Position numbers and translations under genes: made by a program. DNA of 64,000 nt from an uncultured Clostridia bacterium (lineage in GTDB: Bacteria > Bacillota > Clostridia > TANB77 > CAG-508). Shown piece after piece: positions 30,955-35,688 of this stretch (its first letter is position 1; every line of letters starts with the position of its first letter). The stretch spans positions 657 through 64,656 of the forward strand of contig CATGLK010000009.1 in the NCBI GenBank assembly GCA_949538735.1, in the 5' to 3' direction. A model generated the notes under the pieces. The model was not told the origin of the DNA. It made no database searches and was given only the letters and a program-made list of their open reading frames with translations.

Positions 30955-33900
30955 TTGGAATTTAAAGGAAAGGCAGATATATTAACAAAATTGAAAAAGG
31001 CAGTTATGCTAAAAATAAAGATAGTAGCTGTATCAATTATAATACCAATAATTATAGCTGTTATATTGATAACATCGTTAGTGAAAGAAAATAAAAGACA
31101 AATGTCAAAGTCAACACAAGCAAATATATATAAAGCATTAAACGATAATGAAACAGATTTATCACAATTAGTTGAGATAAAAGGTGACGATTCCAATGGA
31201 TATTATCTTGAATTTGTAAGTGACATAGATCAAAGATTGCAAAAGGTCTTAAAAGCAGACAAAGAAACGTATAATGCTATGGGAATAAAAGATGTTAGTA
31301 TATTAAAGAAATTTATAAAAGCTCAATTAGCTACAGAGTTTCCACATTTAGGAGCAAGAATGTCAGGTGGTGGAAGCGGAGCAAGTGGTAGCATTAATGG
31401 AGATCCAGACTTAAGTAATACAACATTTTATCCGCGAGACAGTCAAAATGGGTGGTGCCAATGGTATACAACAGGTCGTATTAGAGAAATATATGGTTTG
31501 GATATACCACCAGATGGAAATCCAGCAGTAGGGTCTGTAAGTGGGTTAAGATTTACATATAATATATTATATGATGAATGGTTATGTAATACATATCCAG
31601 ATTATTTTGAAATGTCTACAGAACCAGCACCAGGTGCAGTATATTGTGCAACGGCATTTGATCATGTAAGTTTTATAAGGGCTGTGGATGTAGATGCAGG
31701 AACAATAACTGTAGAAGATGGAAATAGTGCTCCATTTGGATATGAGGGTGCAAGATTTATTAATTGGACTTCAGAATATGGAATAACCAATCGCCAAGGT
31801 GGAAGTGCTGGGTTAGCAATATATACAGAATCTATAGAATCTTTTAAATCAAGGACAAAAGCAAGATATTGTGTACCTACTGAAAAAGCTAAAGCTTTAA
31901 TGAAAGGCGGAAATGTAACAGACAAGACATCAAATAAATCAAATATAGATAGTTTAGAGGGAGTTTTATTTATAGGAGATTCAATTACAAAAGGATTAGA
32001 GAATTACCACGTTATAACAGATAAAGGAGTACAGTTTAGAGGCGTAATTAGTGCAGCTCCTAGACATTGGCTAAATGATCAACCAGTAAATGGAGTTCCG
32101 ACATTTAGTTCGTTGCCAAACGATAGTGATTCAATTACAGCCATATGCCTTATGCTAGGAACAAACGGGATAGATAATCCAGCTGGACAAGCTGACACAA
32201 TGAAACAGGTAATAGAAAAAATACATGATAAATATCCGAACAAAACGATATATGTGCAAAAGATTTTACCAGTAAGAGAATATGAATCTCAAGTAGAAAC
32301 ATATAATACTAAACTAGAAGAAATATGTAGTTCATTAGGATATACAGTATGTATAAATTCTACAGCCAATGTTGAGTTGGAACCAGGAGATGGAGTGCAT
32401 CCTACAGCGAATGGATCAAAAACATTAGCAGAAAATACAAGAGAACAAATTATAATGGGAGCACAATCAGGAGGAAAAGCAGTAACAAATCCAAATGCAT
32501 TTCAAGGTTCTATAAGAATTAGGAGAATAGGACCAAACAAAGGGGTTGGAGAATATAAAGAGTTAGAACAAGGACAGATTATTGAAGAAGATATAAAAAA
32601 TGAAGGTAAAACAGAAGAGGGACGAGGAAAAAAGGAAGAAATACCAGAAAATATAAAAAATAAAATTATAAAAAAGACAGTTCCAGAAGATAAAAAAGAG
32701 GTATTAGATAGTTTAGCATATTTGACTATTCCATATGTTGACTTTAAAGGTGCAGTAAAAAATGGTCATATGATAGTTAATAAAAATATTGCCGATGAAG
32801 TATTAGACTTATTTCAGGATTTATATAATATAAGATATCCTATAGAAAAGATGGAAATTGTAGAAGAGTATGAACAAGAAGAAGACACAGATAGTGGTAT
32901 AGAGTATAAATCAATTGATGATAATAATACATATTCGTTTTATTATTTAAGTGATGGAGCACATTCAACAGGTAATGCAATAGCAATAAATCCAAAGATA
33001 AATCCAAAGGTAACAAATGGAAATCCGGGGCATGCAAATGCAATAAAATATAGCCATAGAGATGATAAAACTAGATGGAAAGACTATGAAAAGGAAGCAT
33101 GTATAGAAAAAGATTCTGAAGCATATAAAGTTTTTGAAAAGTATGGTTGGATTTGGGGGGGAGACAATAGCGAAACTCCTAATTATATGCATTTTGAAAA
33201 AACAGTAATATCAGAAACAGAGACACAGAAAACAGTAGTTGATACGAGAATATACGATTTATCTTATGTTCCAGAAGAGACATTTAATAAATATGTGGAA
33301 GAAAATAACAGTAGAGCATTAAGAGTATATACATTAGATGATAAAAAGCAGTTAACAATAGCAACATGGTCATATAGTACAGACGGAGGATTAAAAATTT
33401 CAAAGGGAAAAACCATAAATTATAAAGCAGCATTATCTAAATATAGTATGCCAGTAGATTATTTATTAGCAATATTGATGCATTCAGAGGATAAGGTATT
33501 TGCAGAAGGTTTAGCAGATTTAGCAATAGATAGTGAATATATAATATCTGTACAAGATTCAGTAAATACAACTCAAACAGTTACTCAAGTACAAACAGAT
33601 ACATTACAAACAGAAGATATAACAGGAGCAACAGCTATAATAGGAACTTCAACCGAATCTAGTACAAAAGTTACAGAAAGTTCTTCACAACAAATAGAGG
33701 TAACATATGTAGATTGTTGGTTTGTAAAATATGCAAAAGATTTTAGTTTTCATGTAGATACATCAATAGGGAACATAGGAAATGAAGTTAATCTTTCTGG
33801 AAAAAAAGGTGAAAAGATTGGTGATTTCACAATAACAGCATATTGTCCATGTACGCAGTGTTCAGGAGGTTATGGCTCAGCTACAGCTACAGGAACTCAA

Positions 33901-35688
33901 ACAAAGGCAGGGCTAACGATAGCTGTAGATCCAAATGTAATTCCATTAGGAAGTTATGTATCATTTAATGATCATATATATCATGCAGAAGATGTTGGTG
34001 GTGGAGTAAAAGGAAATCATATCGATTTATATATGGATAGTCACCAAGATGCTCTGAACTGGGGGAAAAAGACAATAGAGGTATATTGGGCAGAAGATGT
34101 AGATGGAAGTGAAGAAGAATCTGTAAGTAATACAACAAGTAAAAATTTGAATCCTATTACTACAACAGCCAAAATAATGGCTGACGTTAGTGGGACACAA
34201 AATACGACGAGTGATACTACAACAGTGGCTTTACAAGGACCATTGTTAAATAATAGTAATGGTAAAAAATATAGTATGTATAAAAGAACAATTACTAATG
34301 TTATAACAAAGAGTCTTTCTATCAAATATGACACAGGAAAAGAACATATATCAGGTAATGCACAAAAGTTTATAGATTTGTATAACAGGAAAGAGTGCAA
34401 AAAAGCAAGAAGAAATATATATGTACCATGGCTAATAGAAACATTAGAAGAAAATCAAAAGACAACATCTTTATGCGAAATAACAGAATACTTATTTGCG
34501 CAAGCAACAGGAAAACACTATAAAACAAGTACACTAAAATTTGAACAGTATAAACCAGGAGAATTTAAAGATTATAGTGGAGCTAGTGGGTTAAGCACAT
34601 TTAAAGAATATTTGCATTCTTGGGAAGGGCATACAGGAATTTCAGAAGATGGAACAAAGTATATTGTTGGAGATGATGGAGCTGGACATCCAACAGTTGG
34701 ATATGGAATAGATATATATAATAGTGGTTTTTTAAATAGATTTCAAGAAGCAGGTTATGATGTAAGTATAGGAGCACAAATAGATGTTACATTTGTAGAT
34801 TCATTAGAAGATGAAGAAATACGAAATGCTTTACAGACAGTGGAAACCAATTGTTCAGGATTAAACTTAACACAATATCAGAAATATGCATTAGTTAGTA
34901 GAATCTATAACTGTGGAGTAGCAGGAGCTTTGACAATACCACGTAACGGAAAGAGTTTTGTGGAAGCATATAATTCATATTGGGATCAATCAAAAGATGA
35001 TGAGTATAAAGTTACTACAAATGATGGTATGTTTAATCATCAATTATATACAACATTTATGAATCAACCAACTACTTCAGCAGGAATGTTTATGCAAGGA
35101 CTTGAAAACAGAAGAAAATCAGAATGGATTTTATTTAAAACAGGATATTATGATAGAATTGATAAATGGTGTTCAAATTCATCTGGCGGAGAATTCTTAG
35201 ATGTAGCAAGAGATGTATGGGCAAAAGTATGCGAACAACAACCTACTTATAGTATGGCTTTTGGTAAAACAGTACCACCAAGTGAGCCTCTTCAATATGT
35301 TGATTGTAGTCATTATGTATCTTGGGTATTATATGAGTATGGTTATAAGGAATTTGAAGGAGCTCAACAAAGTACATACTCTTTAATAGGTACAAACTGG
35401 ACTGCCAAATATGGCTGGGAAGAAATTACAATTGGTAATGGAGACGTTTCAAGTCAATTACAACCAGGAGATATACTTGTAAGAGATGGTCATACATGTA
35501 TAGTAGCAGATACATCAGGAGGAAAAATTATGGCCTATGACTGTGGTAGTGGAACAAATCAAACAGGTCCAACTACGTGGGCAGGAAGATGGTCAGAAGT
35601 TAAAGGCTCAGATTCTCCAGTAGATTCAACCTATTTTGCTACTGGAAACTATGGCGCTGGAAAGATCATAAGAGTTACAGCTCCATAA
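30955..35688 (+). CDS. Giant multi-domain cell-wall hydrolase (VirB1/CwlT/PrgK analog). Domains: N-terminal TM, CHAP, SGNH/GDSL, M15 (VanY-like) peptidase, 3D domain, GH24-type lysozyme, NlpC/P60.
   Basis: 1577 aa. Motifs: CHAP NGWCQWYTTG...AFDHVSFI; SGNH FIGDSITKG...DGVHP; M15 SDGAHSTGNAIAI...WIWGGD..NYMHFE; 3D GDFTITAYCPCTQCSGG...VDPNVIPLGS; lysozyme WEGHTG...GHPTVGYGIDI; NlpC/P60 DCSHYVSWV...GHTCIVAD. Confidence 0.8.
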   Translation: MEFKGKADILTKLKKAVMLKIKIVAVSIIIPIIIAVILITSLVKENKRQMSKSTQANIYKALNDNETDLSQLVEIKGDDSNGYYLEFVSDIDQRLQKVLKADKETYNAMGIKDVSILKKFIKAQLATEFPHLGARMSGGGSGASGSINGDPDLSNTTFYPRDSQNGWCQWYTTGRIREIYGLDIPPDGNPAVGSVSGLRFTYNILYDEWLCNTYPDYFEMSTEPAPGAVYCATAFDHVSFIRAVDVDAGTITVEDGNSAPFGYEGARFINWTSEYGITNRQGGSAGLAIYTESIESFKSRTKARYCVPTEKAKALMKGGNVTDKTSNKSNIDSLEGVLFIGDSITKGLENYHVITDKGVQFRGVISAAPRHWLNDQPVNGVPTFSSLPNDSDSITAICLMLGTNGIDNPAGQADTMKQVIEKIHDKYPNKTIYVQKILPVREYESQVETYNTKLEEICSSLGYTVCINSTANVELEPGDGVHPTANGSKTLAENTREQIIMGAQSGGKAVTNPNAFQGSIRIRRIGPNKGVGEYKELEQGQIIEEDIKNEGKTEEGRGKKEEIPENIKNKIIKKTVPEDKKEVLDSLAYLTIPYVDFKGAVKNGHMIVNKNIADEVLDLFQDLYNIRYPIEKMEIVEEYEQEEDTDSGIEYKSIDDNNTYSFYYLSDGAHSTGNAIAINPKINPKVTNGNPGHANAIKYSHRDDKTRWKDYEKEACIEKDSEAYKVFEKYGWIWGGDNSETPNYMHFEKTVISETETQKTVVDTRIYDLSYVPEETFNKYVEENNSRALRVYTLDDKKQLTIATWSYSTDGGLKISKGKTINYKAALSKYSMPVDYLLAILMHSEDKVFAEGLADLAIDSEYIISVQDSVNTTQTVTQVQTDTLQTEDITGATAIIGTSTESSTKVTESSSQQIEVTYVDCWFVKYAKDFSFHVDTSIGNIGNEVNLSGKKGEKIGDFTITAYCPCTQCSGGYGSATATGTQTKAGLTIAVDPNVIPLGSYVSFNDHIYHAEDVGGGVKGNHIDLYMDSHQDALNWGKKTIEVYWAEDVDGSEEESVSNTTSKNLNPITTTAKIMADVSGTQNTTSDTTTVALQGPLLNNSNGKKYSMYKRTITNVITKSLSIKYDTGKEHISGNAQKFIDLYNRKECKKARRNIYVPWLIETLEENQKTTSLCEITEYLFAQATGKHYKTSTLKFEQYKPGEFKDYSGASGLSTFKEYLHSWEGHTGISEDGTKYIVGDDGAGHPTVGYGIDIYNSGFLNRFQEAGYDVSIGAQIDVTFVDSLEDEEIRNALQTVETNCSGLNLTQYQKYALVSRIYNCGVAGALTIPRNGKSFVEAYNSYWDQSKDDEYKVTTNDGMFNHQLYTTFMNQPTTSAGMFMQGLENRRKSEWILFKTGYYDRIDKWCSNSSGGEFLDVARDVWAKVCEQQPTYSMAFGKTVPPSEPLQYVDCSHYVSWVLYEYGYKEFEGAQQSTYSLIGTNWTAKYGWEEITIGNGDVSSQLQPGDILVRDGHTCIVADTSGGKIMAYDCGSGTNQTGPTTWAGRWSEVKGSDSPVDSTYFATGNYGAGKIIRVTAP

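Follow-up and report, generated by a model that had tools for sequence, protein, structure and literature searches.

The window, a stretch of 64,000 nucleotides from an uncultured Clostridia bacterium (contig CATGLK010000009.1), contains an operon for a machine that resembles a type IV secretion system (T4SS). One of its genes encodes a membrane-anchored peptidoglycan hydrolase of 1577 amino acids (aa) in which six hydrolase modules are strung around three conserved, non-catalytic stretches, here called N-domain, U1 and U2. The protein belongs to a previously undescribed family of combinatorial wall hydrolases built on this scaffold. The gene and its parts are as follows:

30955..35688, plus strand: multi-module peptidoglycan hydrolase, complete open reading frame (ORF) of 1577 aa with a TTG start
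31009..31080, plus strand: membrane anchor at the N-terminus (about aa 19-42), preceded by a Lys-rich cytoplasmic tip, from hydropathy
31132..31374, plus strand: N-domain (about aa 60-140), conserved and non-catalytic, present in 137 of 179 family members, from the family alignment
31402..31854, plus strand: CHAP module in variable slot 1 (Pfam match at aa 164-257; Cys168, His237, Glu254/Asn257)
31957..32439, plus strand: putative SGNH/GDSL esterase module (S343, G402, N404, D479, H482), from Pfam and the family alignment
32494..33225, plus strand: degenerate M15 (VanY/LAS-type) module with an N-terminal extension (aa 514-757), from Pfam and the family alignment
33226..33819, plus strand: U1 (aa 758-955), the hallmark scaffold domain, with a long β-hairpin predicted at low confidence
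33832..34104, plus strand: 3D domain (aa 960-1050) of the MltA/YuiC-type lytic-transglycosylase fold (Y1009, D1013, D1024), from Pfam and Foldseek
34267..34599, plus strand: U2 (about aa 1105-1215), the second scaffold domain
34600..35154, plus strand: GH24 phage-type lysozyme module (aa 1216-1400; E1224, D1232, D1241, T1247) in the glycosidase slot, from Pfam
35242..35685, plus strand: C-terminal papain-fold cysteine peptidase of the NlpC/P60-CHAP superfamily (aa 1430-1577; C1451, H1513, D1529), assigned with a family profile

The hydrolase gene

An earlier note on this DNA, made from the letters alone, had proposed an ORF of 1577 aa at 30955..35688 on the plus strand, and this frame is recovered exactly. 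A strong Shine-Dalgarno sequence (AGAGGTGAT, 30941-30949) lies 5-6 nucleotides (nt) upstream of the TTG codon. The gaps to the preceding and following genes, which share the strand, are 25 and 34 nt. The identical 1577-aa protein recurs on at least 21 contigs from independent metagenome assemblies (different studies and assemblers), and variants within the species carry only 1-5 substitutions over the 1577 positions. Because of these identical copies and the scarcity of variant positions, the ORF can be regarded as real and constrained rather than as a chance reading frame. Full-length orthologues with 65-69% identity to the window protein share its architecture.

Catalytic modules

Pfam finds five of the six modules at the places given in the earlier note, and the sixth, at the C-terminus, emerges with a family profile. 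The description of the protein as having six distinct catalytic modules holds for the modules present, but the M15 module is degenerate, which leaves five that are probably active, judging from conserved residues, and one degenerate. The CHAP module (PF05257, aa 164-257) scores 36.6 bits against a cut-off of 26, and the Cys and His predicted for it are in place: Cys168 and His237 are invariant in three orthologues, in which E254/N257 are conserved as well. Among the 179 family members described below, this first CHAP module is restricted to the lineage of the window. Its profile gave only spurious matches in the PDB, with no solved CHAP structure among them. The next module (aa 339-493) matches Lipase_GDSL (PF00657) just above the cut-off (24.3 against 23.6 bits). 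The predicted GDS(L) motif is found as part of a set that comprises SGNH blocks I, II, III and V (GDS343, G402, N404 and D479-x-x-H482) and is conserved in 44-46 of the 46 family modules. Weak PDB matches are to sialate O-acetylesterase, and the module would be a peptidoglycan O-acetyl esterase. The 3D domain, also placed correctly from the letters at about aa 960-1050, is matched by Pfam (PF06725, aa 988-1044) with 55.4 bits against a cut-off of 23.8. Its best sequence relative in the PDB is YuiC (E = 3e-9), and Foldseek aligns the modelled domain with YuiC, MltA and the lytic-transglycosylase lobe of CD1368 (probability 1.0). D992, D1013 and D1024 are present; Y1009, D1013 and D1024 are kept in 52-58 of 58 modules.

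The M15 module has lost catalytic residues of its family. It is recognized by Pfam (Peptidase_M15_4, PF13539, aa 669-749, 45.5 bits against 25), and the family signature is S-x-H-x-x-G-x-A-x-D followed by D-x-x-H, with the complete set H-D-D-H in 29 of 46 family modules. The His and Asp columns were anchored on H66 and D73 in the SKHITGDAID segment of T5 endolysin (2mxz). At these columns the window protein has H670, A677, N743 and H746 (H-A-N-H), with both the zinc-binding Asp and the catalytic Asp replaced, and the two closest orthologues have H-A-N-D and N-T-N-D. The arrangement that characterizes M15/LAS zinc ligation (His-x6-Asp, a C-terminal His and the acid of D/E-x-x-H) is therefore incomplete in the window module. 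Because the two Asp residues are lost, cutting of stem peptides or cross-bridges by this module is unlikely, and it is probably inactive. Between close orthologues the degenerate module is nevertheless 65-69% identical, equal to the intact modules, and purifying selection retains it, presumably as a binding or regulatory unit. There is experimental precedent in PrgK, whose degenerate LytM domain regulates rather than cuts (PMC11323569).

The GH24 module is found by Pfam (Phage_lysozyme, PF00959, aa 1232-1324) with 34.2 bits against a cut-off of 22.3, and the family profile matches solved GH24 lysozymes and endolysins (6et6, 9kbs, 8app and 2anv) with E values of 0.003-1. The expected E..D..T pattern is ambiguous: D1241 and T1247 fit the spacing of T4 lysozyme (E11/D20/T26), but HMMER aligns an invariant Asp, D1232, and not a Glu with the catalytic Glu of the solved lysozymes. 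A Glu, E1224, lies eight residues further upstream in a W-E-G motif of canonical appearance. Of the 45 modules of the family, 43 keep E1224 and 43 keep D1232, and both residues are candidate catalytic acids of a module that is probably active. This part of the AlphaFold model is unreliable, with a predicted local distance difference test (pLDDT) score below 50.

The C-terminal module is a papain-fold cysteine peptidase that, by its profile matches, stands between CHAP and NlpC/P60 (Pfam clan Peptidase_CA). When the window sequence is searched alone, Pfam gives sub-threshold matches to CHAP (E = 0.0011-0.0016, 19-20 bits against 26) and ELLD and no match to NLPC_P60 (PF00877). Across the family, CHAP is matched in 12 of 14 members (best E = 7.9e-8) and NLPC_P60 in 10 of 14 (best E = 1.2e-4). 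The best solved relative of the family profile is the NlpC/P60 endopeptidase CwlO (E = 7.5e-4), with the D-C-S motif aligned. Cys1451, His1513 and a Y-D-C-G motif are invariant in the 14-member alignment, and the triad is kept widely in the family (C1451 in 70 of 70, H1513 in 68 of 70 and D/N1529 in 65 of 70). The earlier label of NlpC/P60 is thus right at the level of the superfamily, but this is not a clean Pfam NlpC/P60 member. The C-terminal part of the AlphaFold model has a pLDDT of 80-93. A Foldseek search with the model of the GH24 and C-terminal modules returned nothing significant; weak matches to an endolysin, T4-lysozyme fusions, UfSP and an NlpC/P60 endopeptidase are merely suggestive.

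Membrane anchor and scaffold domains

A hydropathy scan finds a single hydrophobic segment in the protein (aa 21-39, Kyte-Doolittle peak 3.09), as had been predicted, with all modules downstream of it. Because this N-terminal segment is the only one, about 1530 residues are predicted to lie outside the membrane. The topology is that described for Gram-positive VirB1-like proteins, with one N-terminal segment and the modules beyond it (PMC12857230).

About 40% of the chain has no match to a known family, and the parts most conserved across the whole hydrolase family are three non-catalytic stretches within it: the N-domain, U1 and U2. Both peptide patterns picked as most conserved by the search for related loci fall in U1. 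A linker rich in Ser, Thr and Glu (aa 1045-1104) precedes U2. The three domains have no relatives in Pfam or PHROG; profile searches of the PDB with U1 and U2 found none, and U1 gave no tblastn match in plasmids or phages. In the AlphaFold model of aa 755-1230, which is of low confidence (pLDDT 56), the 3D domain is set between long hairpins of U1 and of the region before U2. The two predicted hairpins, with about 30 residues per strand and rich in Thr, Ser and Gln, span aa 856-925 or so in U1 (33520-33730) and aa 1071-1125 or so before U2 (34165-34330). Long hairpins of this kind often build oligomeric barrels or stalks. Outside the 3D domain, Foldseek gave only low-probability matches of such hairpins to secretin barrels, which are not trusted. 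The scaffold formed by the N-domain, U1 and U2 may dock or position the enzyme at the secretion apparatus.

A family with a common scaffold

A search for similar architectures, which the earlier note had suggested, yields 179 relatives with a common scaffold, so that the window hydrolase is no one-off. The U1 profile found one protein in an indexed protein database, and an exhaustive search of cluster representatives was used to define the family. With a U1-3D-U2 profile, this HMMER search gives 135 cluster representatives at E <= 1e-30, ranging from 430 to 2189 aa. The 179 U1-bearing proteins were annotated with local hidden Markov models seeded from Pfam-annotated segments. Their architecture follows one grammar: N-domain, a series of modules, U1, an optional 3D domain, U2, a glycosidase and a cysteine peptidase. 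The slots between the N-domain and U1 hold zero to five modules, drawn from CHAP, Phage_lysozyme2, M23, Peptidase_C39_2, VgrG3-like_C, GDSL, M15, Beta-lactamase2 and Amidase_3. The glycosidase slot after U2 is occupied by one of GH24, Phage_lysozyme2, Glucosaminidase or Hydrolase_2, and the last slot by one cysteine peptidase, which is of the C-terminal type found in the window or is NLPC_P60 or C39_2. A protein has between 0 and 8 catalytic modules, most often 3, taken from about 15 types, and 42 of the 179 proteins have at least six. The minimal form consists of a glycosidase and a CHAP or NlpC/P60 peptidase. By these annotations, the window hydrolase is an expanded but not extreme member of a graded family of zero to eight modules.

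Two further features of the relatives deserve mention. Many of them (P0004, P0006 and P0013; L007, L009, L014 and L018), but not the window hydrolase, carry, between M15 and Amidase_3, a β-lactamase-like class-A module that scores 140-160 bits with Pfam Beta-lactamase2. Among solved structures it is closest to TLL2115 (2j7v, E = 1e-17). Its K-T-G motif is conserved to 90% or more, and most of these modules have S-L-I-K, which resembles S-x-x-K. This module may be a DD-peptidase or a stem-peptide-binding unit, and a penicillin-binding-type module is unusual in a lytic enzyme. On two related contigs (L027 7657-12205 and L028 3983-8531) the hydrolase is split into two ORFs with a 23-nt overlap. 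The first (788 aa) encodes NLPC_P60, M15_4 and Amidase_3, and the second (734 aa) U1, U2, Phage_lysozyme2 and NLPC_P60. A true two-gene version, a programmed frameshift or an error in sequencing could account for the split. Downstream of it, L027 has one pilin gene more (15455-15853).

Operon and chromosomal setting

The hydrolase gene is the tenth of eleven co-oriented, tightly packed genes (22044-37096). The remaining ones are:

22044..23749, plus strand: four genes for VirB2-like pilins (TrbC / T4SS_pilin), with which the operon begins
23862-24218, plus strand: PrgI/VirB3-like gene
24208-25440, plus strand: TraC-like anchored protein, 410 aa
25400-27373, plus strand: VirB4 ATPase
27342..30929, plus strand: 879-aa polytopic protein (VirB6-like by position and topology), followed by a 291-aa protein
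30054-30929, plus strand: the 291-aa protein, of no family, directly upstream of the hydrolase
35723..37096, plus strand: 457-aa protein with an N-terminal anchor and DUF4864 (aa 345-425), whose gene closes the operon

The pilins are tandem divergent paralogues of 119, 113, 121 and 130 aa with three hydrophobic segments apiece, one of them at the N-terminus, and the reading frames of the PrgI-like, TraC-like and VirB4 genes overlap (23862..27373). The link to a T4SS that had been proposed for the hydrolase is thus well founded: its gene adjoins four pilins, PrgI, VirB4 and the 879-aa polytopic protein. It is encoded within a T4SS cluster, near homologues of VirB3, VirB4 and VirB6, and this position is kept in at least 19 species. 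The genes for the 291-aa and 457-aa proteins that flank the hydrolase keep their positions in every species. In known Gram-positive systems, VirB8-like wall subunits recruit the hydrolase, as PrgL, which is bound by PrgK. The 291-aa and 457-aa proteins are candidates for such VirB8-like recruiting subunits.

The window is the chromosomal origin region: dnaA (7854-9206, minus strand) is some 13 kb away from the operon, and rnpA is at 9873-10226. The minus strand carries gyrB, recF, dnaN and dnaA, and the plus strand rnpA, yidC, jag, mnmE, mnmG, rsmG, parA and parB; between the gyrB-dnaA and rnpA-parB blocks the GC skew flips sign. The operon follows the oriC-proximal block rnpA-yidC-jag-mnmE-mnmG-rsmG-parA-parB-DUF4446, and all genes downstream of it are housekeeping genes. 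No relaxase, coupling protein or integrase is found among the scanned ORFs of the window or in the precomputed annotations of nine further loci (L001-L006, L026-L028), and plasmids yielded no match to the operon in a megablast search. Because the 64-kb window has neither relaxase nor coupling protein, classical conjugation is unlikely. The T4SS is chromosomal, situated by oriC and syntenic across species, which is not typical of a conjugative element.

The interval between the parB/DUF4446 block and the pilins (19138-21725) is variable between strains and holds genes of the defence or toxin-antitoxin type. In the window it contains a protein with Schlafen AlbA_2 and HATPase_c_4 domains and two unannotated ORFs on the minus strand; elsewhere it contains HipA_C in one strain and AbiEii/DUF6922 in another (L001 1-151; L003 1-929).

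Distribution and divergence

Nineteen GTDB species representatives, which are labelled Clostridia or Clostridium and come from the gut of humans, rabbits and mice, have the same operon at the same place, and so do further contigs. In all of them the hydrolase lies between proteins of about 300 and about 450 aa. At several loci a highly conserved 1450-aa BcrAD_BadFG gene is again found downstream of the operon. When the proteins of loci L007-L025 are compared with those of the window, VirB4 is 78-85% identical and the housekeeping neighbour 84-89% (at loci that hold most of the gene). The hydrolase is 26-47% identical, over partial alignments; the pilins are mostly 36-51% identical, with up to 70% over shorter alignments, and the flanking anchored proteins 29-41%. 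Together with the 879-aa protein, these components lie mostly at 26-50% identity. More than 7000 database proteins match the window VirB4 at E <= 1e-10; the best 120 are all at least 82% identical to it, and the named relatives among these 120 are labelled Clostridia. Contigs of the clade that bear VirB4 reach 1.75 Mb. As far as these comparisons go, the motor of the machine is strongly conserved and its exposed parts diverge fast. Because the operon is syntenic across species and its VirB4 is as conserved as a housekeeping neighbour, the T4SS appears to be vertically inherited and under selection. For the same reasons a prophage or a remnant of an integrative and conjugative element was rejected as its origin.

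Proposed function and alternatives

The gene probably encodes the cell-wall-processing, VirB1-equivalent subunit of a chromosomal pilin-array T4SS-like machine in uncultured gut Clostridia. The hydrolase would be tethered in the membrane by its one N-terminal helix, with the roughly 1530 outside residues forming a chain of modules on linkers rich in Ser, Thr and Glu, and the scaffold of N-domain, U1 and U2 would position it at the secretion apparatus. The SGNH esterase may strip O-acetyl groups that block glycosidases. The 3D/MltA-type lytic transglycosylase and the GH24 lysozyme would cut the glycan, and the CHAP amidase/peptidase and the C-terminal NlpC/P60-CHAP cysteine peptidase would cut the peptide parts. 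The M15 module, probably inactive, would bind or regulate, like the degenerate LytM domain of PrgK. Together the modules may open the thick Gram-positive wall locally and let a pilus or channel pass. The specificities assumed in this scheme are those suggested by the module types, and the wall that is cut would, at least in the first place, be that of the producer itself.

Several points weigh against this reading. The activities of the modules, in all family members, are read from sequence and not from enzymology. Lipase_GDSL_2 (PF13472) stays under its Pfam cut-off (30.9 against 32.9 bits), and the assignment of the catalytic acid of GH24 is ambiguous. With pLDDT values of 56-58, the models of U1/U2 and GH24 inspire little confidence, which leaves the docking role of the scaffold a conjecture. 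Known T4SS hydrolases manage with one or two activities, and six to eight modules seem more than punching a hole would require. Finally, modules turn over rapidly, and the hydrolase is only 26-47% identical across species, compared with 78-85% for VirB4. This shuffling and fast divergence fit either a drilling enzyme or a contact-dependent effector, and they fit adaptation to wall chemistry especially well.

The last observations also feed a rather less probable alternative, in which the tethered chain acts in trans and digests the wall of a neighbour (partner, prey or host) where the T4SS pilus makes contact. The opening might then serve exchange, uptake or killing, with swappable modules that track the wall chemotypes of the targets. 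The combinatorial shuffling of about 15 module types, at zero to eight per protein, and a divergence far above that of the cytoplasmic ATPase would suit such an organ. An O-acetyl-esterase-type module beside glycosidases would, by inference, beat a common defence against lysozyme. Some relatives contain modules known from attack devices, namely the phage tail lysozyme and VgrG3-like_C of the type VI secretion system. The operon also has the design of the Patescibacteria T4SS that is needed for epibiotic growth (PMC12102498), and the missing relaxase and coupling protein make classical conjugation an unlikely purpose. On the other hand, the hydrolase is anchored in the membrane of the producer, with no release or cleavage signal identified in it and no immunity gene evident beside it. 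Moreover, all exposed proteins of the operon diverge fast, perhaps through relaxed constraint or through immune or phage pressure. One may tentatively picture reduced-genome gut Clostridia with a vertical, oriC-proximal, relaxase-less pilin-array T4SS in which the hydrolase is the organ that attacks the partner wall, its modules matched to the peptidoglycan chemotypes of the bacteria to which these Clostridia attach, on which they feed or with which they exchange material, although this seems doubtful.

It is very improbable that the protein is an ordinary autolysin or wall-turnover enzyme (for growth, separation or sporulation) that merely lies beside T4SS genes. Each module type, taken singly, is common in housekeeping autolysins such as CwlO, YuiC and the wall-binding proteins EntA-D. 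However, in every context inspected the U1 proteins occur only in the T4SS operon, in a fixed slot between the same neighbours; the short same-strand gaps on either side of the gene indicate co-transcription, and Pfam finds none of the LysM, SH3b or CWB wall-binding repeats typical of autolysins. Hardly any credence is left for an assembly chimera or a decaying gene fusion without a functional product. The two contigs with split ORFs of 788 and 734 aa and the degenerate M15 module could be taken as signs of decay. Such an origin is contradicted by the independent recovery of the same ORF from at least 21 contigs, the few substitutions within the species, the full-length orthologues (65-69% identity) of shared architecture and the retention of catalytic residues throughout the family. 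The preferred reading remains that of a wall-processing subunit of the T4SS.

Significance

Secretion machines of Gram-positive bacteria have to cross a wall 30-100 nm thick. Known T4SS hydrolases have one to three domains, of which just one is active in the best-studied case. The family described here amounts to a natural combinatorial experiment, in which one scaffold carries zero to eight modules of about 15 types in defined slots in more than 100 lineages. The combinations found in the slots should show which activities, such as those of esterase and glycosidase or of amidase and endopeptidases, are needed jointly. With the N-domain, U1 and U2 there are now candidates for the link, so far missing, that joins the wall enzyme to the channel. 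As the operon suggests, T4SSs that are of the pilus type and do not serve conjugation also exist outside Patescibacteria, and this would alter the interpretation of such systems in abundant uncultured gut bacteria. The modules of the family are, in addition, a ready source of enzyme combinations against Gram-positive walls.

Comparison with known systems

In gene content and position, the machine has the design of the T4SS of Patescibacteria such as Ca. Southlakia epibionticum ML1. A 2025 review states that VirB2 pilins are absent from Gram-positive T4SSs, with Patescibacteria as the sole exception, and that among monoderms pilin-bearing T4SSs are unique to that group (PMC12857230). There, pilin arrays of 2-11 genes occur without a relaxase and near dnaA and rnpA, and in one cultured case epibiotic growth depends on the T4SS, with the peptidase and lysozyme genes that adjoin virB4 among its essential parts (PMC12102498). 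The window shares the divergent VirB2-like pilin array by VirB3, VirB4 and VirB6 (pilins at 22044-23749), the lack of a relaxase within 64 kb, the proximity to dnaA and rnpA and the wall-lytic gene beside virB4 (PMC12102498, PMC12857230). Unlike in Patescibacteria, the hosts are labelled Clostridia, the gene order at oriC is of the Firmicutes type and a GerM-like gene is present. In most pilin-bearing genomes of Patescibacteria a VirB1 homologue is missing, and hydrolases built on a comparable scaffold have not been described from them. A paper on a pilin of the TANB77 clade (PMC11680825) was considered as a parallel and set aside: the assembly annotations are of the Flp/Tad type (CpaB, CpaF), with no mention of T4SS or VirB.

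The top structural match of the modelled middle region of the hydrolase is CD1368 (8v3w_H, E = 1e-5), the diffocin hub-hydrolase of a Clostridioides difficile R-type bacteriocin. It combines an MltA-like 3D lytic transglycosylase lobe and an NlpC/P60 endopeptidase lobe into "scissors" that drill the thick Gram-positive wall (PMC10996793). The match runs through the 3D lobe only. In contrast to the anchored hydrolase, CD1368 is soluble; it serves a contractile injection device as its gp27-like hub protein and has two catalytic lobes.

Gram-positive VirB1 homologues, such as PrgK, TraG and Orf14, carry one to three extracellular domains (PMC12857230), and the contrast with six modules that the earlier note had drawn is therefore justified. 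PrgK of plasmid pCF10 (Enterococcus faecalis), a VirB1 homologue of the DELTA class, consists of a LytM, a muramidase ("SLT") and a CHAP domain. As a T4SS wall hydrolase it shares with the window protein the membrane anchor, several extracellular domains, the pairing of a glycosidase with a C-terminal CHAP-type cysteine peptidase, and a metallopeptidase module with a degenerate active site (PMC11323569, PMC12857230). However, PrgK has three modules, compared with six here and up to eight in the relatives. The window hydrolase has M15 in place of LytM/M23 and GH24 and 3D in place of an SLT-like domain, with an SGNH esterase and a second CHAP-type module in addition, and its scaffold of N-domain, U1 and U2 is without a detectable counterpart in PrgK. 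Whereas PrgK serves plasmid conjugation with a relaxase and a coupling protein, the operon described here is chromosomal and has neither within 64 kb. TraG of pIP501 (SLT and CHAP), Orf14 of Tn916 and CwlT of ICEBs1 (muramidase and NlpC/P60) are two-domain hydrolases. The minimal members of the family are similar to them in domain design, with an N-terminal anchor and a glycosidase followed by a cysteine peptidase (PMC12857230; PMC12102498). In the window hydrolase, this pair forms only the C-terminal end of the chain, and four modules and three scaffold domains precede it.

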